A DNA stretch of 16,884 nt. Origin: a virus. Position numbers and translations under genes: made by a program. The notes beneath the pieces were generated by a model, which saw nothing but the letters and a program-made list of their open reading frames with translations, searched no databases and was not told the DNA's origin. Below, one piece after another: positions 620 through 15,023 of the stretch; within the stretch, counting starts at the first letter, position 1; every line of letters begins with the position of its first letter. The stretch lies in the UHGV virus genome UHGV-0068632; one strand, written 5' to 3'.

Positions 620-1309
620 ATGGTGAAAACTATGATTCATGTTCGAACAGGACAATTTGCGGCGGTGGTAGACGGCAGGAGGTATGCGTTTAATCCCTGC
701 TTCGCTGCAATGGCTAAGATCGGCAGTGACAGCGAACTGGTCGAATACTTCGCAACCATCCACGGTGGCAAATATCCATCACGATTGCCAGCAGATCCAG
801 ACCTTCGCAATCGCATTCTGGCGCGGTGTTATGGTGAGTTAGTGCAAACGTCAATACACATCCTGAAATGTTGCTCAGACAACGAAATAGGCCCGTTATT
901 GGGTGAATGTAGGTTTACTCCTTCCGGCAAATTGCGACTAAAACCCGGACTGATGCCGACCAGTGACGTTATCACGCTGGCGCAACATTGCATGTACCAC
1001 GGTTTAATCGGTGACGGGCCAGAAGAAGACGCCGGAGAGATCCGGGAAGGGGAATATAAGCCGACTTTTAACGTGCTGGAATTCGTTTATTCTGCCGTAG
1101 CTCACCTGGGGTTATCAGAATCAGAAGCATGGAATATGACAATGACCGGATATAGAGCCGCCGTACGCGCTAAAACGCCGCCAGACGAAAGAAACGAGAG
1201 AAGCAAGCCAAACGTTCACATAAATAAACGTGCTTATGACGAGCAAATGGAGGCCGCTAAAAAGGCACTAGAAAGAATGAAAAATCGAGAGCAAGAAAAA
1301 GCCCGGTAG
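620..1309 (+). CDS. Putative tail assembly chaperone (gene in the lambda G/GT position), 229 aa
   Basis: ORF located between the tail tube gene and the tape measure gene. The ATG at 620 abuts the terminator T-tract and has no clear RBS; an alternative ATG at 632 is preceded by ggtga at 5 nt spacing. Function assigned by synteny only. No slippery frameshift site identified. Confidence 0.45.
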   Translation: MVKTMIHVRTGQFAAVVDGRRYAFNPCFAAMAKIGSDSELVEYFATIHGGKYPSRLPADPDLRNRILARCYGELVQTSIHILKCCSDNEIGPLLGECRFTPSGKLRLKPGLMPTSDVITLAQHCMYHGLIGDGPEEDAGEIREGEYKPTFNVLEFVYSAVAHLGLSESEAWNMTMTGYRAAVRAKTPPDERNERSKPNVHINKRAYDEQMEAAKKALERMKNREQEKAR

Positions 1310-1325
1310 ATCCGGGCGTTTTTGT
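1294..1325. terminator. Bidirectional hairpin terminator between convergent genes
   Basis: GCCCGG-tagat-CCGGGC at 1301-1317, flanked by an A-tract upstream and GTTTTTG downstream. Lies between the + gene ending at 1309 and the - gene ending at 1335. Confidence 0.6.
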
Positions 1326-1334
1326 TAAGTTCGC

Positions 1335-1655
1335 TTATGCTATTTTTTCGTAAAGCACATTCATCTGGGTGCGAATCACTGTTAATATATTGATTGCTGC
1401 GTTCTTATCAATGCGTTTATTCGCTACTATTTTTGTTTTCCCATCAATAACAACCAGATCTGCGTGCAATACATGGTTGAAGTTGACAATGTAATAATAC
1501 TGTTTATCGCCAACATGTTGAACATATGCACCATTTAGATTTCCTTTATACCCACAATCACGCTCTGCGACACCGAAGTCAAATTCGCGGTTCATCTTGC
1601 GATTATATGCTACTTGTTTATGTTCCCATTTTCTCATCCATTCATCGCGCTTCAT
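1335..1655 (-). CDS. Hypothetical basic protein, 106 aa, last gene of minus-strand cassette 1
   Basis: ORF with RBS aagggtga upstream of the ATG at 1655. The RBS overlaps the stop of the upstream lipoprotein gene, suggesting translational coupling. Net basic composition. No family recognised. Confidence 0.65.
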   Translation of the reverse strand: MKRDEWMRKWEHKQVAYNRKMNREFDFGVAERDCGYKGNLNGAYVQHVGDKQYYYIVNFNHVLHADLVVIDGKTKIVANKRIDKNAAINILTVIRTQMNVLYEKIA

Positions 1656-1664
1656 GTTTCACCC

Positions 1665-2324
1665 TTAATTCCAGTTGCAAGCGTTTTTTACTTTGTCGAT
1701 GTGGTTATAAAGACCATCAATGTTAAACACTGCTTTCTCAATGTCGCCAGCTTCCGGCACTACTTCAATGATAAATTGTTTTTCGTTAACCAGATTTTTA
1801 ATCATTGGGATGGCTTTTTTGTCGTTCCATAATCCAAGAGCTTTATAGTTAGTTGACCGCCCCCATTCAGTGGCTACAGCTTTGTGATCGCCGATCCGGT
1901 AGTTAATATAAGTAGCGTCCCCGGCGTCAGTTACACGGTGTGACCATGCTACGAACATTTTTGTTTTATTACCCTGGCAAGCAATTGTTAATACCGGTTT
2001 ATTATTATCCTGTGCCTTCAGTGCCGGGAAGGCATCAAGACTTCCGCTAAAATGATCTGCTTTCACAAAAAGGAACACGTTTTTTGTGTCCTGCATATCA
2101 TCTTTTCTTTCGACCACAAGCCACTGTTTACCAGCTTTTTCTTTTGCTAACTGTGCCTCATATGCGGCTTGTTTTGCTTGTTGTTCCGCAAGCCATTTAG
2201 CATTTTTCTCAGCCAATGCTTGTTGTTCTTGAGTGGTCACTATAGGCGCTTTTTCATTATCCTCATTGCAACCAACCAGACCCAATACCGCCGCAATCAT
2301 TGCCACTTTTGCTAACTGTTTCAT
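1665..2324 (-). CDS. Putative outer-membrane lipoprotein, 219 aa, accessory (moron-like) gene
   Basis: N-terminus MKQLAKVAMIAAVLGLVGC has a signal peptide and lipobox L-V-G-C; residue +2 is Asn, which by the +2 rule predicts outer-membrane sorting. A Gln/Ala/Lys-rich predicted helical linker precedes a globular C-terminal domain. Opposite strand to the tail genes. Confidence 0.8.
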   Translation of the reverse strand: MKQLAKVAMIAAVLGLVGCNEDNEKAPIVTTQEQQALAEKNAKWLAEQQAKQAAYEAQLAKEKAGKQWLVVERKDDMQDTKNVFLFVKADHFSGSLDAFPALKAQDNNKPVLTIACQGNKTKMFVAWSHRVTDAGDATYINYRIGDHKAVATEWGRSTNYKALGLWNDKKAIPMIKNLVNEKQFIIEVVPEAGDIEKAVFNIDGLYNHIDKVKNACNWN

Positions 2325-2336
2325 AACCCACCACGC

Positions 2337-2426
2337 TTAGTTTTTATTTTTAAGTGATTTTAACATTTCTTCAATGAAATCCGCATAGCGTTCATGTTCG
2401 TTGGGACGGTAGTTTACGTTTTTCAT
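2337..2426 (-). CDS. Small hypothetical ORF, 29 aa (MKNVNYRPNEHERYADFIEEMLKSLKNKN), first gene of cassette 1
   Basis: Found by hand; below the ORF track cutoff. RBS gagga lies 4 nt upstream of the ATG at 2426, and its stop is 12 nt upstream of the lipoprotein start. Short, so coding status is uncertain. Confidence 0.35.
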   Translation of the reverse strand: MKNVNYRPNEHERYADFIEEMLKSLKNKN

Positions 2427-2503
2427 TTTCTTGTCCTCTTTTGCTTCCTCCGGTTTATCCGGTCCTTTTAAATCCCTTTACTCTATCCATTTCCTTTAGC
2501 CTC

Positions 2504-2567
2504 TTTATACAAAATGTATTCGTTGAAGTGAAGCCATTTTGTATAAAATAGAGACATAGATCACATC
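2504..2567. promoter_or_regulatory. Divergent promoter/operator region carrying the shared motif pair
   Basis: Perfect 13-bp inverted repeat tttatacaaaatg (2504-2516) / cattttgtataaa (2535-2547) containing a TATAAA -10-like core in each orientation. Followed by catagatcaca (2555-2565) with a GATC site, 20 nt upstream of the tape measure ATG. Confidence 0.45.
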
Positions 2568-2584: not shown

Positions 2585-4924
2585 ATGGCTACCAGTGTAG
2601 GTACAATTTATTACGAAGTTGATGCAAAAACTGGTCAACTTCTCGTTGCACAACGACAGGCAGACCAGGCCTTTGACCGTATAGAGCGCGGCGCAAAACA
2701 GGCTGACCGCCAGGTAAACACCCTGAAAACATCCATCAAGGCACTGACCAGGGTTATCCATTTGCTAATTGCTGCCGAGGCTGTGCGCCAATTTATGGAT
2801 ATGGCGGAGCAAGCCAAAATGCTTCGCGTAAAAATCAAATTGCTTACAGGTGAAGCGGAGGCAACGGAACGGGTTTTCAACAGACTGAAAGAAATATCAA
2901 AAGAAACAGGCCAAAGCCTCAAGGATACTGGTGCCCTGTGGCAAGGTCTTGCTATATCGCTAAAAAACACATCCGCCACAGAAGGCCAGGTGCTCAACCT
3001 GGTCAGCACGCTGCAAAAACTTGGTAACTTGGGCGGCGTGTCTGCGGAACAACTATCAAACTCCATGCTTCAGTTCCGCCAGGCTATTGATGCTGGCGTG
3101 TTGCAGGCGGAAGAGTTCAACTCAATACGTGATAACACCCCAACAATCATACAGGAAATGGCCCGACAGATGGGGTTATCTATGGGGCAGTTCCGCGCCG
3201 AAATGCTGGACGGCAAGATCACGGCTGAAAGGATGCTCAACGCGATCCAGGCGGCTACGCAGGAAACAAACGAGAAGTTTGCACAGTTACCGCGCACGTC
3301 CGGTATGGCTTTTAATGAGCTTAAAGTCGAGGTGATGGGACTTGTCGAACAACTTGATGATCTTTTCGGCATATCAGATGGCGTTGTGTCAGCTATCGAC
3401 TTAATAACTGGTGGCGTTGAGGGATTAGGTAAAGGCGCAAAATTCGCCGCAACCTGTTTCAATACACTAAAAACGGCTGGCAGTGAGTTTATCGACATGT
3501 TTGATGATGTTGCTGTTAAAGCTGGTGAGGTGGCGGAAGAGATTATCAGGATGGTAACGCCAATCAAAGCGCTAATGGATGGCTACAAATGGATGAAGGA
3601 GATCATTGATAAACGCAAGAATGAGCTAAACAGCAACAACGAAAAGAAATTCGGCCCTACAGTCGGTAAGGTCATGACGTTTGCAAATGACATCAAAAAT
3701 GCGACCGCCGCTTATGATGAGTTTATGCAGAAACAGGGTGAGGCTGATGACGGCAAGATCACCGGATTCGATCAGCCAGTTGGCAAGCCGAAAAAAGGGA
3801 AAAAAGACAAGAAATCTGAAGCTGATCGGCTTGGTGATGAAGGCATAAAAGTATCCGACCAGTACAACAAAGACGCCGCAGCTATGCGCAAAGCGTTAGA
3901 GAACGGCAAGGCCATTGATGCTGCATTCGCCCAGGGTAAAATCACTCTCCTTGAGTACCGCGCCGCGCAAAAAGGGATAGGTAAGGAACTGAAGGAAGAA
4001 TTAGCGCAAATTCCGGTAGATGAATTGCGTGATAAATGGGCGCAAATAGTAAGCCCGATGGATCAGCTTAAAGGTGAGGTTGACCCTATCCAGCAGGTGC
4101 AGAATGAATGGGCCGTCCGTAAGCAAATGCTTATCGACCTGGGCGTTACTGAAGCGCAACAGAAACAGGAACTGTTAGCCTATGAGCAACAGATCCGTGA
4201 TCTGAAGTGGGAACAGTGGCAGGCACAAAGCGATACAAACGGCCTTATCGGTGATTGCGTTAATGGCCTAAAAGGTGGTATGAGCAATGCACTTGTTGGC
4301 CTGTTAAATGGTACTCAATCATTGAGTGATGTTTTTGCTAACTTAGGCAGCAATATCCTCGGGAATATCGGTAACAGGCTTTCAGACATAGCTGCAAACT
4401 GGATAGCAGATCAGATCATGATGGAAACGCAAAGCAAAGCGACTCAGGCAAGTACCACGGCGGGCGCGGTAGCGGCGCAAGGCCAGATTGCTGCGGCGGC
4501 GGCCCCGGCGGCGGCGGCAACAGCGGCGTCAACTGGCGGCGCATGGGCGGCGGCTGGTTCTGCGGCACTCACTGCGATCATGTCGCTGGCTACGTCAATT
4601 TTCGGCGGCGGTCGCTTTAATGGTGGTAGCGTTATTGGTGGCAATATGTACCGCGTAGGGGAACACAACAGGCCGGAGCTATTCCAGACATCTAACGGAA
4701 ATCAATATATGATCCCAGGCGAGAATGGCAGGGTTATTCCTGGGCGTGATATTGGCGGTGGCGGCGGCATTAGTATGCCTGTCAATATCAACATTCAGAC
4801 CACAAACGGATTTAGCGACGAAGACAGTCGCAGACTTGAGCAAACAATGGAACGTGTAGCAATGAAGATGATAACAAGGGAATCACAAAGACCTGGAGGA
4901 ATATTGCAACCGCGCCGCAAATAA
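2585..4924 (+). CDS. Tail tape measure protein, 779 aa
   Basis: Large ORF in the expected position, with RBS gagg 8 nt upstream. Has the mostly helical N-terminal region and the Ala/Gly-rich hydrophobic segment (QASTTAGAVAAQGQIAAAAAPAAAATAAS...) typical of tape measure proteins. Followed by gpM/L/K/I/J homologues. Confidence 0.9.
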   Translation: MATSVGTIYYEVDAKTGQLLVAQRQADQAFDRIERGAKQADRQVNTLKTSIKALTRVIHLLIAAEAVRQFMDMAEQAKMLRVKIKLLTGEAEATERVFNRLKEISKETGQSLKDTGALWQGLAISLKNTSATEGQVLNLVSTLQKLGNLGGVSAEQLSNSMLQFRQAIDAGVLQAEEFNSIRDNTPTIIQEMARQMGLSMGQFRAEMLDGKITAERMLNAIQAATQETNEKFAQLPRTSGMAFNELKVEVMGLVEQLDDLFGISDGVVSAIDLITGGVEGLGKGAKFAATCFNTLKTAGSEFIDMFDDVAVKAGEVAEEIIRMVTPIKALMDGYKWMKEIIDKRKNELNSNNEKKFGPTVGKVMTFANDIKNATAAYDEFMQKQGEADDGKITGFDQPVGKPKKGKKDKKSEADRLGDEGIKVSDQYNKDAAAMRKALENGKAIDAAFAQGKITLLEYRAAQKGIGKELKEELAQIPVDELRDKWAQIVSPMDQLKGEVDPIQQVQNEWAVRKQMLIDLGVTEAQQKQELLAYEQQIRDLKWEQWQAQSDTNGLIGDCVNGLKGGMSNALVGLLNGTQSLSDVFANLGSNILGNIGNRLSDIAANWIADQIMMETQSKATQASTTAGAVAAQGQIAAAAAPAAAATAASTGGAWAAAGSAALTAIMSLATSIFGGGRFNGGSVIGGNMYRVGEHNRPELFQTSNGNQYMIPGENGRVIPGRDIGGGGGISMPVNINIQTTNGFSDEDSRRLEQTMERVAMKMITRESQRPGGILQPRRK

Positions 4925-4927
4925 ACG

Positions 4928-4958
4928 AAACCCCGGTACAATGCCGGGGTTATCTTTT
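4928..4958. terminator. Bidirectional hairpin terminator
   Basis: CCCCGG-tacaatg-CCGGGG at 4931-4949 followed by TTATCTTTT. Lies between the tape measure stop (4924) and the stop of the minus-strand ORF at 4957. Confidence 0.6.
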
Positions 4959-5133
4959 AGTTATTCTCAAAACTTGTATATCCTCTTTCAATTTTCCCGC
5001 CTCTTACACTTCTTGCAAATACTGCATCATTATGTTTGAAAAATGGTTCAGTATATGTGTCTCCTTTACTATCCATCCATTTCACGATCCAGGCTATACG
5101 TTTTACATTGCTTTTATTTGCCTGGTTTTTCAT
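4957..5133 (-). CDS. Small hypothetical protein, 58 aa (MKNQANKSNVKRIAWIVKWMDSKGDTYTEPFFKHNDAVFARSVRGGKIERGYTSFENN)
   Basis: Found by hand; one codon under the track cutoff. Strong RBS ggagg about 9 nt upstream of the ATG at 5133. The overlapping + strand track ORFs 5032-5289 and 5043-5228 lack an RBS and look like low-complexity antisense artefacts. Confidence 0.5.
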   Translation of the reverse strand: MKNQANKSNVKRIAWIVKWMDSKGDTYTEPFFKHNDAVFARSVRGGKIERGYTSFENN

Positions 5134-5151
5134 TTTATTTTCCTCCGCAAA

Positions 5152-5244
5152 TTACAATCTTCCGTTTCTGGCTATATAGCTGCGAGAAAACATCACCAAC
5201 CAAATATTCCAGATCTCCCTCCAGGTGAATTTATCGTCCTCCAT
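5152..5244 (-). CDS. Possible micro-ORF, 30 aa (MEDDKFTWREIWNIWLVMFSRSYIARNGRL)
   Basis: RBS gaggtg upstream of the ATG at 5244 overlaps the TGA stop of the 84-aa gene, and its own stop sits just upstream of the RBS of the 58-aa gene. Very short, so low confidence. Confidence 0.25.
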   Translation of the reverse strand: MEDDKFTWREIWNIWLVMFSRSYIARNGRL

Positions 5245-5251
5245 ACCCACC

Positions 5252-5506
5252 TCACTTATGGCAACCGCGAACGCCAGACAATTCATTGAATTTATGGTGT
5301 TCAACAATCACCCACTCTTTCAGATCCTGGCTATAGACTCGCCAGTCTAAATTGGCGCGGAAGGCGTAGCCGTAACCGTCTTTCAATTTTTTGGGTGACG
5401 CATTCTTGTTTAAAAACGCGTTCAAAAGTTCCTTTGCTTTTTTGACTACATGTCCCGGCGCGTTTTTCTGTGCTTTCAGATTTTTGTCAATCGCTACCAG
5501 TTTCAT
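5252..5506 (-). CDS. Basic 84-aa protein, tentatively RelE/ParE-superfamily-like (candidate toxin or mRNA interferase)
   Basis: Complete ORF in the track. Net charge about +9. The segment KKLKDGYGYAFRANLDWRVYSQDLKEWVIVEHHK resembles, by eye, the beta-strand core and C-terminal His/Tyr region of RelE/YoeB/YafQ-type toxins. This is pattern recognition only, not an alignment. Confidence 0.55.
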   Translation of the reverse strand: MKLVAIDKNLKAQKNAPGHVVKKAKELLNAFLNKNASPKKLKDGYGYAFRANLDWRVYSQDLKEWVIVEHHKFNELSGVRGCHK

Positions 5507-5523
5507 AACTCACCCCATCATCC

Positions 5524-5678
5524 TTAGTTAAGTGCCTTCAGGAAGAAGTCCCGGTATTCATCTTCTTTTGCATTCATCATGAATTGACCGTATTTGAATG
5601 CGTCGTCGAAACCCTTAACGATTGCTATTTCCACTTGTTCGAATGCGTTGTTTAGCATTACCACTACATAGCGTTTCA
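5524..5678 (-). CDS. Small hypothetical protein, 51 aa (MKRYVVVMLNNAFEQVEIAIVKGFDDAFKYGQFMMNAKEDEYRDFFLKALN), possible partner of the 84-aa protein
   Basis: Strong RBS aggagg 6-7 nt upstream of the ATG at 5678. The track's longer 76-aa version starting at 5754 runs through the promoter motif and has no RBS, so the internal start is preferred. Lies 17 nt upstream of the 84-aa gene. Confidence 0.55.
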
Positions 5679-5744
5679 TTTTGGGCCTCCTTCGTTGGTA
5701 CTGCTTTTCTTCTTGCTTTCTATATACATCTTGATGCGTGATAT

Positions 5745-5830
5745 GTGAAGCCATTTTGTAAACTAGCTATAATCATTGTGATGAAGATCTCATTTTTTGC
5801 GTAGAATCGCGTAAAAGTATATACAAAATG
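5745..5830. promoter_or_regulatory. Divergent promoter/operator region carrying the shared motif pair
   Basis: gtgaagccattttgta at 5745-5760 is identical over 16 bp to 2528-2543. A perfect TATAAT lies at 5768-5773 and a GATC at 5786-5789. The motif recurs in reverse orientation as tatacaaaatg at 5820-5830. Confidence 0.4.
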
Positions 5831-7108: not shown

Positions 7109-7456
7109 TTATTTATCGAATGCGCCCAGGTTATCTATGCAGAAGTCTTTCGCAGCTTTTTCGTATTCGCGTTTTGCTTGCGGATCGTCTGCCGGGAAAC
7201 CTTTTGCGTGTATTTCACCAGGGCAAGACTGATCCATAGAATCAGCAAATTCAACATTGACGTTAAAGTTAATATCTTTCGGATTCATGTTTTCCACCTC
7301 ATCAATTATCTGCACCGGATTAGCGGCATATTTCACTGGATGGCCTAAACTACATTCAAGAATCCTTCCTTCTTCCAAAGCTGCCTCTTCGCTATCAAAT
7401 AATCCGAAACACTCCTTGCAACCACTTAACCACACATCAAGACTATATTTTTGCAT
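7109..7456 (-). CDS. Acidic hypothetical protein, 115 aa, cassette 3
   Basis: ORF in the track. RBS gagagg 8 nt upstream of the ATG at 7456. About 23 Asp/Glu against about 11 Lys/Arg (net charge near -12). Contains a CxxC pair (CKEC). No family recognised. Confidence 0.7.
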   Translation of the reverse strand: MQKYSLDVWLSGCKECFGLFDSEEAALEEGRILECSLGHPVKYAANPVQIIDEVENMNPKDINFNVNVEFADSMDQSCPGEIHAKGFPADDPQAKREYEKAAKDFCIDNLGAFDK

Positions 7457-7468
7457 TTCGTTAACCTC

Positions 7469-7624
7469 TCATTTGACAGGTTCGATTCTGTACCCCAAAA
7501 CGCGTTCGTCTTCAGCGAGTAATAGCGCGTCAGTCAGTGCCTCGCCTTCGTCTTTATACAGAGCTACAGTCATTTCCCTGCCACCTGACAGGAATACCTT
7601 CAACCTCCACACCTTATCAGCCAT
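7469..7624 (-). CDS. Small hypothetical protein, 51 aa (MADKVWRLKVFLSGGREMTVALYKDEGEALTDALLLAEDERVLGYRIEPVK), first gene of cassette 3
   Basis: Strong RBS ggagg 6 nt upstream of the ATG at 7624. The track's 76-aa version starting at 7699 has no RBS and extends into the promoter region. Stop lies 12 nt upstream of the next gene. Confidence 0.55.
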   Translation of the reverse strand: MADKVWRLKVFLSGGREMTVALYKDEGEALTDALLLAEDERVLGYRIEPVK

Positions 7625-7628
7625 CTCA

Positions 7629-7739
7629 CACCTCCGCGCCATTTTGTTAACTGTGCTTCCGTTTGAGTAAAATATACATATTGTATAAACCGCGATCAAT
7701 CCATTTTGGTATGATTTAGCGTGACGCAGATCACAAAAT
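7629..7739. promoter_or_regulatory. Divergent promoter/operator region carrying the shared motif family
   Basis: Motif variants at 7629-7641 (ccattttgttaac), about 7669-7681 (catattgtataaa) and 7701-7715 (ccattttggtatgat, containing the extended -10-like TGGTATGAT). agatcacaaaat at 7728-7739 is identical to 15004-15015. Confidence 0.4.
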
Positions 7740-14606: not shown

Positions 14607-14632
14607 CCCCGCTTCGCGCGGGGTTTTCTTTT
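14607..14632. terminator. Bidirectional intrinsic terminator between the J-like gene and the lipoprotein gene
   Basis: CCCCGC-ttcgc-GCGGGG at 14607-14623 followed by TTTTCTTTT. Lies 8 nt after the J-like stop codon, and the minus-strand lipoprotein stop overlaps the T-tract. Confidence 0.65.
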
Positions 14633-14879
14633 AGTAGTTAGCTACACAATTCGACGGGCTACCTATGCGGCGCATGTTGTGATCGAGTTCATGACACCAT
14701 TGACCAGTATATGGCAGTTTTTCAGTGTCATATACAAGATGACCATTAGCATCATAGACGATTTCTTGTGGAATCACTCCGCTATTTGGCAGGTTATGCA
14801 ATGCAGCTTCTTTGTCAACAGCGCAACCAGTAAGAGCAACAGCCGCAGCGAATAAAACCACTTTGAACATGTTTTTCAT
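14631..14879 (-). CDS. Small outer-membrane lipoprotein, 82 aa, in the Cor/Llp position (candidate receptor-blocking superinfection exclusion protein)
   Basis: N-terminus MKNMFKVVLFAAAVALTGC has a signal peptide and lipobox L-T-G-C with Ala at +2. RBS gagga 6-7 nt upstream. Encoded convergently just downstream of the receptor-binding J-like gene, where T1/phi80-type Cor and T5 Llp genes are found. Assigned by position and type, not by sequence homology. Confidence 0.7.
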   Translation of the reverse strand: MKNMFKVVLFAAAVALTGCAVDKEAALHNLPNSGVIPQEIVYDANGHLVYDTEKLPYTGQWCHELDHNMRRIGSPSNCVANY

Positions 14880-14975: not shown

Positions 14976-15023
14976 CATTTTGTATAAGTCAAAAATGTAA
15001 CATAGATCACAAAATGGTAGAAT
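14976..15023 (+). promoter_or_regulatory. Candidate promoter and conserved leader for the tail fibre gene
   Basis: cattttgtataa at 14976-14987, catagatcacaaaat at 15001-15015 (GATC at 15005-15008), and the extended -10-like TGGTAGAAT at 15015-15023, about 34 nt upstream of the ATG at 15057. Confidence 0.45.

Follow-up and report, generated by a model that had tools for sequence, protein, structure and literature searches.

The locus described here raises a simple question: what is a minus-strand cassette carrying a predicted lipoprotein gene doing within the tail operon of a phage, and where would its products act? The stretch of DNA that we analysed (the window; 16,884 nucleotides of UHGV-0068632) comes from a temperate E. 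coli siphophage, an mEp021-like member of the mEpimmI group. Its sequence match is 96% to phage MagusPhagus and 84–86% to the mEp phages, and the similarity to both stops exactly at the cassette. Three minus-strand genes encoding proteins of 29, 219 and 106 aa sit between a DUF6246 gene and the tape measure gene, as an earlier sequence-only reading had proposed for the ORFs at 2337–2426, 1665–2324 and 1335–1655. Their position, which that reading gave as between a chaperone gene and the tape measure gene, is correct, although the identity of the chaperone is positional only, since the DUF6246 gene occupies the tail-chaperone position but its TAC matches are non-significant. Both here and in each of the 17 related loci of the viral collection, the 219-aa gene is found between the DUF6246 and tape measure genes of a siphophage. 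The elements of the locus are as follows.

2504..2565, minus strand: conserved upstream module, comprising TGTGATCTATGT (2554–2565), TTTTATACAAAATG (2535–2548) and an 18-nt inverted repeat (arms 2504–2521 and 2530–2547)
2450..2462, minus strand: leader hairpin CCGGATAAACCGG, about 25 nt before the ATG of the 29-aa gene
2337..2426, minus strand: gene for a hydrophilic small protein of 29 aa, MKNVNYRPNEHERYADFIEEMLKSLKNKN, an optional leader gene of the slot
1665..2324, minus strand: gene for the 219-aa lipoprotein, with a predicted signal peptide and lipobox (residues 1–19), a flexible segment (20–30), an alpha-helix (31–63) and a VasI/TagO-family beta-sandwich (about 68–219)
1335..1655, minus strand: gene for the 106-aa basic protein, an ORFan and independently shuffled second cargo gene
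1301..1317, both strands: bidirectional hairpin resembling an intrinsic terminator (GCCCGG-loop-CCGGGC) and having T-runs on both strands, identified by a terminator scan

All three ORFs are real genes under coding constraint, with dN/dS values of about 0.03–0.25, and an SD-like sequence precedes each of their starts. They are closely spaced: the ATG of the 219-aa gene follows the 29-aa stop codon after 12 nt, and that of the 106-aa gene follows the 219-aa stop codon after 9 nt. The SD-like sequence of the 106-aa gene overlaps the latter stop codon. Translational coupling of the 219-aa and 106-aa genes, as had been suggested, is no more than plausible because the two ORFs do not overlap. The 29-aa ORF had been assigned to the same transcript as the lipoprotein gene and is indeed real and tightly spaced upstream of it, but it belongs to the leader of the slot and also precedes other cargoes, those of MagusPhagus, mEp021, mEp554, 09-00049 and STEC308; it is missing from the M1/5-type copies and from many of the copies that carry TagO. 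Comparisons with relatives give 5 synonymous and 1 non-synonymous, and 10 and 3, substitutions (dN/dS about 0.03; dN 0.016 and dS 0.52 against MagusPhagus), and mEp021 and mEp554 have an in-frame 3-nt indel. This pattern of substitution and occurrence identifies the ORF as a conserved small gene of the slot leader and not of the TagO cargo.

The cassette is very probably a moron carrying a VasI-domain lipoprotein, and as a moron it is an element of an ordinary kind. Its GC content (0.375–0.435) deviates from that of the flanks (about 0.46–0.50), it is present or absent among relatives, and it has its own terminator, the hairpin at 1301–1317, which overlaps the DUF6246 gene at its end and closes the cassette. 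This hairpin, a match at consensus level only, has a 6-bp all-GC stem and lies 17 nt past the 106-aa stop. Among the relatives, at least six arrangements of cargo are seen between the DUF6246 and tape measure genes.

TagO lipoprotein and 106-aa protein
TagO lipoprotein and 124-aa lipoprotein
TagO lipoprotein alone
secreted 160-aa protein, 106-aa protein and 124-aa protein
secreted 137-aa protein
small membrane proteins

In locus L034 nothing separates the DUF6246 gene from the tape measure gene. The first gene in the slot always bears an export signal, and the alternative first genes have in common the N-terminus MKRLAKVA. The slot behaves as a site of cargo exchange in which leader and terminator are constant, and the view that the tail operon contains an independent minus-strand cassette that moves horizontally is supported.

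The 219-aa protein begins with MKQLAKVAMIAAVLGLVGC and continues NED. Its signal (MKQLAK-VAMIAAVLG-LVGC19) has an n-region with two lysines, a hydrophobic core of 12 residues and the lipobox L-V-G-C ending in Cys19, and thereby presents the charged n-region, the uncharged h-region and the [LVI][ASTVI][GAS]C pattern with the cysteine at about 15–35 of a PROSITE PS51257-type lipobox. Among 13 homologues, neither G18 nor C19 varies. In E. coli, Asn at the +2 position predicts the outer membrane, and sorting to that membrane had been proposed on this basis; the Asn is present in the window allele, but the +2 residue varies among homologues (N, R, D, G or E, with Asp-Glu in one), so outer-membrane sorting is not a constant of the family and the membrane of residence is uncertain. 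Structure prediction, which had been suggested as a check, returned an AlphaFold2 model with a Q/A/K-rich helix of 33 residues (31–63) followed by a beta-rich domain (68–215). The lipobox, the Asn, the helical linker and the globular domain are therefore as the sequence-only reading described them, and the predicted fold is an IalB-like beta-sandwich.

The globular domain belongs to the Pfam VasI family (PF11319; 53.9 bits, gathering score 26.5), with residues 55–218 aligned to positions 25–184 of the 184-position profile. C116, C216 and W218 do not vary among 11 diverse VasI-domain members, a C-terminal A-C-x-W motif is present, and a disulfide between Cys116 and Cys216 probably closes the beta-sandwich. 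This family assignment, which is also that of the T6SS protein TagO, displaces the suggestion that the protein is an unusually large member of the Cor/Llp type. Cor, Llp and the mEpimmI Lpp proteins are about 60–80 aa long and are encoded after the J-like gene, whereas the 219-aa gene lies between the chaperone and tape measure genes; there is no homology between them, and no match in Pfam, NCBIfam or PADLOC links the 219-aa protein to Cor/Llp/Lpp. The window also has an 82-aa lipoprotein in the Cor position (14631–14879), and the cassette is, as had been stated, separate from and unrelated to it in position and in family (PHROG 12984 for the 82-aa protein and PHROG 1848, which is not a structural family, for the 219-aa protein).

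Searches with the 219-aa protein, using a word-indexed protein search with the single sequence and then a 13-sequence profile, recovered 12–14 close relatives, and a scan of one genome per species recovered none, suggesting that the lipoprotein variant is confined to E. coli mEp021-like prophages. The gene has a dN/dS of about 0.2 among 10 alleles. A fold search of BFVD with the model found uncharacterised phage proteins only, and a sequence search of the PDB gave one chance match only. The structural resemblance to Bartonella IalB (PDB 3dtd) is accompanied by an identity of only 10% and by no sequence-level family match at E values up to 1; as no biochemical activity or mechanism of IalB is known to us, the match names a fold and not a function.

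Closer to the 219-aa protein is the TagO of the T6SS-2 of E. coli Sakai (ECs_0222), which is 31% identical over 112 aa (E 2e-11). The homology to T6SS TagO/VasI proteins such as ECs_0222 and V. cholerae VCA0118 extends over the C-terminal beta-sandwich and includes the pair of cysteines, a P-x-L-x-I-x-C-x-x-N-x-T strand and an F-N-I-x-G-L...A-C-x-W C-terminus, and both proteins are predicted to be exported to the periplasm. At the N-terminus they differ: T6SS TagO has a plain signal peptide and ECs_0222 has an RLxCYD motif, whereas the 219-aa protein has a lipobox and a Q/A/K-rich helical linker instead. The motif is present in the P2-like phage copies (as three repeats) and in a Brucella phage copy. 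Against the TIGR03360 equivalog model the 219-aa protein scores 41.6 bits, below the cutoff of 124.2, other phage-borne copies score 26–76, and the ECs_0222 control scores 257.4. In Brucella phage BiPBO1 a VasI-domain gene directly follows a CI-like repressor gene; P2-like phages have one beside attR, and Pasteurella phage Pmp14 has one between the chaperone gene and a large gene downstream, probably that of the tape measure. The recurrence of VasI-domain genes at classic lysogenic-conversion positions of unrelated temperate phages supports a lysogen-expressed defence role. A distinct TagO/VasI-domain subfamily is lysogenic-conversion cargo of many unrelated temperate phages, and a predicted lipid-anchored version of it occupies a classic moron slot here.

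Upstream of the cassette, the module at 2504–2565 is kept in all relatives regardless of the cargo that follows. Its motif is present in five copies in the window compared with 0.34 expected, and the module also precedes two other minus-strand cassettes, including that of the Cor-position lipoprotein, with local alignment scores of 31, 23 and 32 against about 16–17 ± 2.3 in shuffled sequences. The leader of the gene for the Cor-position lipoprotein contains a hairpin, CCGGATGAACCGG, near-identical to that at 2450–2462. The module is a candidate promoter or operator of the cassette, and it is possibly a restart element for the plus-strand tape measure gene. A sigma-70 scan of the region upstream of the cassette found no consensus site, and inspection of the module by eye gave no -35/-10 register that is consistent across the three copies.

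The reading that we prefer, and in which our confidence is a little below even, is that the cassette is a moron whose VasI-domain lipoprotein would be produced by the lysogen and work in its envelope, perhaps in phage exclusion. The protein would be exported by Sec and processed as a lipoprotein at Cys19, and would then hang from the membrane, which for the window allele with its Asn at +2 would be the outer membrane under the +2 rule. The helix, about 5 nm long, would present the VasI/TagO-type (IalB-like) beta-sandwich in the periplasm, and the protein, if made in the lysogen, would most likely interfere there with genome entry by other phages, as reported for SDIC4B. The 106-aa protein would be separate cytoplasmic cargo and the 29-aa gene a facultative leader gene. 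The reality of the genes, the domain and its fold, the mobility of the cassette and the loose pairing of its genes are shown, whereas we infer that the lipoprotein is processed and sorted as such, that the prophage expresses it and that it acts against phages; exclusion as the specific mechanism is a tentative proposal drawn from analogy, and receptor blocking or phage exclusion, the roles raised in the sequence-only reading, are reasonable guesses on the same footing.

The first of these analogies is one of position. HK97 gene 15, the first described moron, encodes a superinfection exclusion protein and has the chaperone gene on one side and the tape measure gene on the other; its product derives from a host gene, yebO (PMC3594210). 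The cassette with the 219-aa gene is in the same slot, which supports our reading, and both genes are accessory and targeted to the envelope, with a host-gene origin apparent for each (tagO/vasI for the 219-aa protein). They differ in that gp15 is a small inner-membrane protein for which exclusion has been demonstrated, unrelated in sequence to the 219-aa lipoprotein. The Cor-position gene offers a second parallel, as the 82-aa and 219-aa proteins are both minus-strand prophage lipoproteins of the tail region with the upstream element and the leader hairpin in common. Lpp homologues of the Cor-position gene in mEpimmI phages exclude phages experimentally (PMC11893012), and the common upstream element and hairpin lend support to a defence role.

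SDIC4, a system from Serratia LptG-YjiA islands, provides the third analogy. Its SDIC4B component has a VasI-like fold, is periplasmic, gives 10–200-fold phage protection on its own, and is reported to interfere with phage genome entry (bioRxiv 10.1101/2024.01.28.577318). We took the sequences of SDIC4A, SDIC4B and subtype II from the plasmid table of that preprint and translated them; SDIC4B and all of its operon partners are exported, lipoprotein or membrane proteins. SDIC4B and the 219-aa protein are alike in being small and exported to the periplasm, in having a Cys near the C-terminus and another in an early beta-strand, and in being encoded in short operons of envelope proteins outside T6SS loci. 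SDIC4B is soluble, chromosomally encoded and BrxR-associated, whereas the 219-aa protein is predicted to be lipid-anchored and is phage-borne, with no BrxR near the cassette, and the SDIC4 partner genes are unrelated to those for the 106-aa, 124-aa and other slot proteins. Alignment of the 219-aa protein with SDIC4B by hhalign gave probabilities of 0.13% and 1.0%, and no match emerged when the slot proteins were compared with the SDIC4 components by BLASTP. We therefore reject membership of SDIC4 for lack of sequence or profile similarity and keep the analogy, in which the link to SDIC4B would be solely the VasI fold similarity given in the preprint.

Several observations count against the preferred reading. 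No PADLOC model matches. The dN/dS of the 219-aa gene does not indicate the diversifying selection often seen in arms-race proteins, and the phage already has an exclusion lipoprotein in the Cor position, both of which argue against an exclusion role. Expression in the lysogen is called into question by the lack of a sigma-70 consensus and by the chance that the upstream element serves the plus-strand late genes.

Among the alternatives, the relationship to TagO suggests that the lipoprotein might modulate or plug into the host T6SS-2, or shield the envelope of the lysogen from T6SS attack. The Pfam match above threshold, the cysteine pair and ACxW motif in common with ECs_0222, and the presence in E. 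coli T6SS-2 of a periplasmic TagO next to ClpV are all compatible with this, and TagO/VasI is itself a T6SS accessory protein still listed without known function (PMC13584744). However, the equivalog score falls far short of the cutoff that ECs_0222 clears (257 bits), the RLxCYD motif of T6SS VasI is missing, and the 219-aa gene lies in a phage tail operon outside any T6SS locus and not beside tssH/clpV or tssA. VasI-domain genes are moreover found in phages of Brucella, a genus that to our knowledge has no T6SS, and we regard a T6SS function as unlikely. A role as an envelope fitness or virulence factor, in host interaction, adhesion, invasion or envelope stress, as for lambda Lom and Bor or Bartonella IalB, also seems improbable to us. 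Morons do encode diverse fitness factors (PMC3594210), the 15 carrier genomes of the cassette include human, STEC and food isolates, and in a study of C. rodentium prophages a cargo gene of the VasI family appears, on annotation alone, among the putative virulence factors (PMC6456863); but the match to the IalB fold supplies no mechanism, and a lipoprotein tethered in the periplasm would not be exposed at the surface unless flipped.

The remaining alternatives concern the neighbours of the gene. The spacing of the 219-aa and 106-aa genes on one strand, with an SD-like sequence over the upstream stop, and the nearly unchanged pair in at least nine loci would suit an obligate two-component system of co-translated, interacting proteins. 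The pairing is not obligate, however: in at least 11 loci the lipoprotein has an unrelated lipoprotein of 124 aa beside it, in L033 and L035 it is alone and in L034 it is followed by unrelated small acidic proteins, and the 106-aa gene is found elsewhere behind a non-VasI secreted protein of 160 aa. The 106-aa protein is basic, as had been noted (pI 9.5; 18 K+R and 12 D+E; dN/dS 0.25), and has neither a signal peptide nor a transmembrane segment, so it is expected in the cytoplasm, a different compartment from that of the periplasmic lipoprotein. The proposal that it is a partner of the lipoprotein is thus not upheld, and a two-component system is very unlikely. A structural, assembly or lysis component, such as an o-spanin-like lipoprotein or a tail assembly factor, is brought to mind by the lipobox and by the location inside the tail gene cluster, and is in our judgement extremely unlikely. 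The cassette runs against the tail genes and ends in a terminator of its own; its neighbours are tail genes, and none of them encodes an i-spanin, holin or endolysin. The PHROG is not a structural one, and the 219-aa gene is absent or replaced in the viable isolated phages mEp021, mEp554 and MagusPhagus. The concern, voiced with the sequence-only reading, that the protein could prove to be a conserved structural or lysis component is answered by this absence from close relatives and by the one locus in which the DUF6246 and tape measure genes adjoin.

A broader reading, which we consider distinctly doubtful, is that phage-borne VasI/TagO proteins are a widespread class of prophage periplasmic exclusion factors, linked to T6SS TagO, that sense envelope-penetrating tail-like machines. 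Such a class would include the lipid-anchored version described here, the versions of P2-like, Klebsiella, Pasteurella, Brucella and Labrenzia phages, and possibly SDIC4B, and the feature recognised may be one common to phage tail tips and T6SS spikes. If this were true, study of the class would also reveal what TagO does in the T6SS. A positive result in a phage or T6SS challenge would add an envelope-level defence protein and provide a functional handle on T6SS TagO.

The slot also provides a clear case from nature of cargo modules being exchanged behind a leader that stays constant, and helps to predict prophage-expressed genes in the mEpimmI group of phages, which is common in the human gut. 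The exchange extends to the individual modules, as in locus L022, where a TagO allele that is 92.7% identical is joined to a 106-aa gene that is 99% identical, a mixture of diverged and near-identical parts that points to module shuffling.

A minus-strand cassette of three close-set ORFs is present at 1335-2426, exactly where a sequence-only reading had placed it. That reading set the cassette between the chaperone and tape measure genes; the tape measure gene is as described, but 'chaperone' derives from the position of the DUF6246 gene only. The cassette and its neighbors are as follows:

102-578: tail tube gene
620-1309: DUF6246 gene, at the tail-chaperone position
1301-1317: hairpin closing the cassette, with T-runs on both strands (sequence scan)
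1335-1655, minus strand: 106-aa ORF, read in the sequence
1665-2324, minus strand: 219-aa ORF, read in the sequence
2337-2426, minus strand: 29-aa ORF, read in the sequence
2585-4924: tape measure gene

The 29-aa and 219-aa ORFs are separated by 12 nt and the 219-aa and 106-aa ORFs by 9 nt, an SD-like sequence precedes every start, and the cassette GC content is 0.375-0.435, compared with about 0.46-0.50 in the flanks. All three are under coding-sequence evolution: pairwise dN/dS for the 219-aa gene is about 0.13-0.5, typically 0.2, with no indication of diversifying selection among the 10 alleles compared; the 106-aa gene has a dN/dS of 0.25 against a 73%-identical homologue; and the 29-aa ORF differs from its relatives by 5 synonymous and 1 non-synonymous change in one comparison, by 10 and 3 in another, and by an in-frame codon indel. 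Matches in the flanking DNA are at 96% to Escherichia phage MagusPhagus and at 84-86% to mEp021, mEp554, mEp010, and mEp044, and the similarity stops at the cassette. These relatives are Nus-dependent, non-lambdoid 'mEpimmI' temperate siphophages (PMC11893012).

Phage isolates, prophages of E. coli, and contigs from the viral collection show the following gene sets in the slot that separates DUF6246 from the tape measure gene:

[29 aa], TagO-like 219 aa, 106 aa
[29 aa], TagO-like 219 aa, unrelated 124-aa lipoprotein (lipobox LTGC, PHROG 18614)
TagO-like protein only (203 or 223 aa)
secreted 160-aa protein, 106 aa, 124-aa lipoprotein
29 aa, secreted 137/138-aa protein
28-aa protein, membrane proteins of 35 aa and 104 aa (mEp554)

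A leader of ~130 nt adjoining the tape measure gene is kept irrespective of the cargo, and the arrangements with a long first gene share an almost identical signal-peptide N-terminus (MKRLAKVA...); cargo therefore swaps behind a fixed leader and ahead of a fixed terminator. Direct evidence for module shuffling is provided by one locus (L022), in which a TagO allele at 92.7% identity is joined to a 106-aa gene at 99% identity. Mobility of the cassette is established, and the TagO-like version is found in about 15 of 5,426 complete E. coli genomes. One more distant relative has the tape measure gene directly adjoining DUF6246 and the TagO-like gene at another place, followed by unrelated small acidic proteins. 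The element is a moron in a canonical moron slot and ordinary in kind; its position is identical to that of HK97 gene 15, the element that gave rise to the term and whose product is a superinfection exclusion protein of host-gene origin (PMC3594210).

The MKRLAKVA/MKQLAKVA start is common to the TagO-like, secreted 137/138-aa, and secreted 160-aa first genes (in the window and in loci L001, L003, L007, and L008), suggesting that recombination swaps the cargo at a joint within the signal-peptide coding region. In mEp554 (PP180005.1, 2329-2850), GenBank has the plus-strand ORFs mEp554_92 and mEp554_93, which are probably wrong-strand calls, because it is the minus strand that carries the conserved 28-aa leader gene together with the membrane-protein ORFs of 35 and 104 aa.

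The 219-aa product is an exported VasI-fold protein and is very probably lipid-anchored. Residues 55-218 match Pfam VasI (PF11319; 53.9 bits, gathering score 26.5), and the full-length protein matches PHROG 1848, of unknown function (E 2e-56). The proposed lipoprotein signal holds up, as it conforms to the lipobox rules, with G18 and C19 invariant in 13 homologues. Cys116 and Cys216 are invariant among diverse family members, consistent with a periplasmic disulfide. The +2 residue following the lipobox Cys differs between close homologues (N, R, D then E, G, or E in the alignment of P0001-P0012), so some alleles may stay in the inner membrane, and function may require periplasmic tethering only. 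Linker length also varies among homologues, which are 203-224 aa long.

The accompanying genes are less closely tied to the lipoprotein than had been proposed. The 106-aa protein, put forward as its partner, is not obligate: its gene is an independently shuffled ORFan, other slot combinations exist, and the 219-aa protein has no obligate partner. The 29-aa ORF is, as supposed, a real upstream gene, encoding a conserved hydrophilic peptide, but since it precedes varied cargoes and is missing from many TagO-carrying copies, it is part of the leader and not of this cargo. A 4834-aa 'protein' (P0018) matched the 106-aa profile at E 5e-39 by summing weak repeat matches; it is built of about 46 near-identical Gly/Val/Ala-rich repeats and must, with near certainty, be seen as a false ORF or search artefact rather than a relative.

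Scanning for sigma-70 sites gave no consensus promoter ahead of the cassette. The leader contains a conserved module, TGTGATCTATGT followed by TTTTATACAAAATG, the latter forming an 18-nt inverted repeat with a plus-strand copy. The module recurs ahead of two further minus-strand cassettes of the window, the 14631-14879 lipoprotein gene and a 51-aa and 115-aa pair (7109-7624); local alignments of the three copies score 31, 23, and 32, compared with about 16-17 +/- 2.3 for shuffles. There are five copies of TTTTATACAAAATG (up to 2 mismatches) versus 0.34 expected.

2535-2565, 7695-7735, 14976-15011, minus strand: TGTGATCT(A/G)(T/C)GT - N9-15 - (T)ATAC(C)AAAATG, ahead of three tail-region cassettes
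2503-2516, 5817-5830, plus strand: further TTTTATACAAAATG copies
14631-14879, minus strand: 82-aa lipoprotein (lipobox LTGC, PHROG 12984 'lipoprotein'), Cor position after the J-like gene

A CCGGAT(A/G)AACCGG hairpin is likewise common to the TagO and Cor-position leaders (CCGGATnAACCGG in the latter). Homologues of the Cor-position lipoprotein in the mEpimmI group have been proven experimentally to exclude superinfecting phages (PMC11893012), and the leader shared with this exclusion-type gene suggests that the TagO cassette is co-regulated with a function already known from lysogens. The element may be a promoter or operator that morons use in common, but could equally serve as a restart signal for plus-strand late genes past each antisense cassette.

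The third of these antisense cassettes (7109-7624, minus strand) has two ORFs behind the shared element, one of 51 aa (ATG 7624, MADKVWRLKVFLSGG...) and then one of 115 aa (7109-7456). Another (4957-5754, minus strand), just past the tape measure gene, comprises 76-aa, 84-aa, and 58-aa ORFs; related loci label the 84-aa product ParE_like, and relatives also have an HNH gene at that place.

What the 219-aa protein does we infer, and phage exclusion at the envelope is the likeliest, though tentative, reading. The best precedent, by analogy, is SDIC4, an anti-phage system of Serratia LptG-YjiA islands. Its component SDIC4B reportedly has a VasI-like fold outside T6SS loci and alone gives 10-200-fold protection (preprint, bioRxiv 10.1101/2024.01.28.577318); from the supplement plasmid sequences, it and all other SDIC4 components are secreted, lipoprotein, or membrane proteins, an all-envelope content resembling that of the slot. 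Neither sequence nor profile comparison revealed any resemblance of SDIC4B to the window protein, and no PADLOC model matched. Another envelope fitness function for the anchored protein seems improbable to us, and a structural or lysis role has very little probability.

A T6SS-related role is likewise unlikely, about on a par with another envelope fitness function. The C-terminal 112 residues of ECs_0222 (Sakai), the TagO of the E. coli T6SS-2 locus adjoining ClpV, are 31% identical to the window protein (E 2e-11). The window protein is not a TagO equivalog, because it scores 41.6 bits to TIGR03360 (cutoff 124.2; ECs_0222 257; other phage-borne copies 26-76), lacks the N-terminal RLxCYD motif that T6SS members and several phage copies have, bears a lipid anchor and helical linker in its place, and is encoded within a phage tail operon. 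A 2026 review (PMC13584744) lists the T6SS role of TagO/VasI as unknown, and the cassette offers a cheap experimental route to this domain's function. The main gene could already be recognised, and had been auto-annotated, as a TagO/VasI-family member; what is new is the lipid-anchored architecture without RLxCYD, the finding that the supposed partner is an ORFan shuffled on its own, the combinatorial nature of the cargo slot, and a leader element common to the cassette and the exclusion lipoprotein gene.

VasI-domain genes are present in 24 phage records (tblastn), at standard sites of lysogen-expressed cargo in those that follow. In Brucella phage BiPBO1 the gene is 8 nt after a CI-like repressor in the same orientation. 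Pasteurella phage Pmp14 (997-2920), which is unrelated and has a host of another family, uses the same slot as the window: a pair of VasI-like paralogues, together with a secreted protein, comes after the tail chaperone genes and before a 652-aa gene, probably the tape measure. P2-like phages of Klebsiella and E. coli have the gene next to attR, with a zinc-ribbon membrane protein ahead. In two of the P2-like phages (500465-2 and 3LV2017) that protein has transmembrane segments, and the TagO-like gene, wholly without annotation in 3LV2017, encodes a ~297-aa protein with three RLxCYD repeats followed by the VasI domain.
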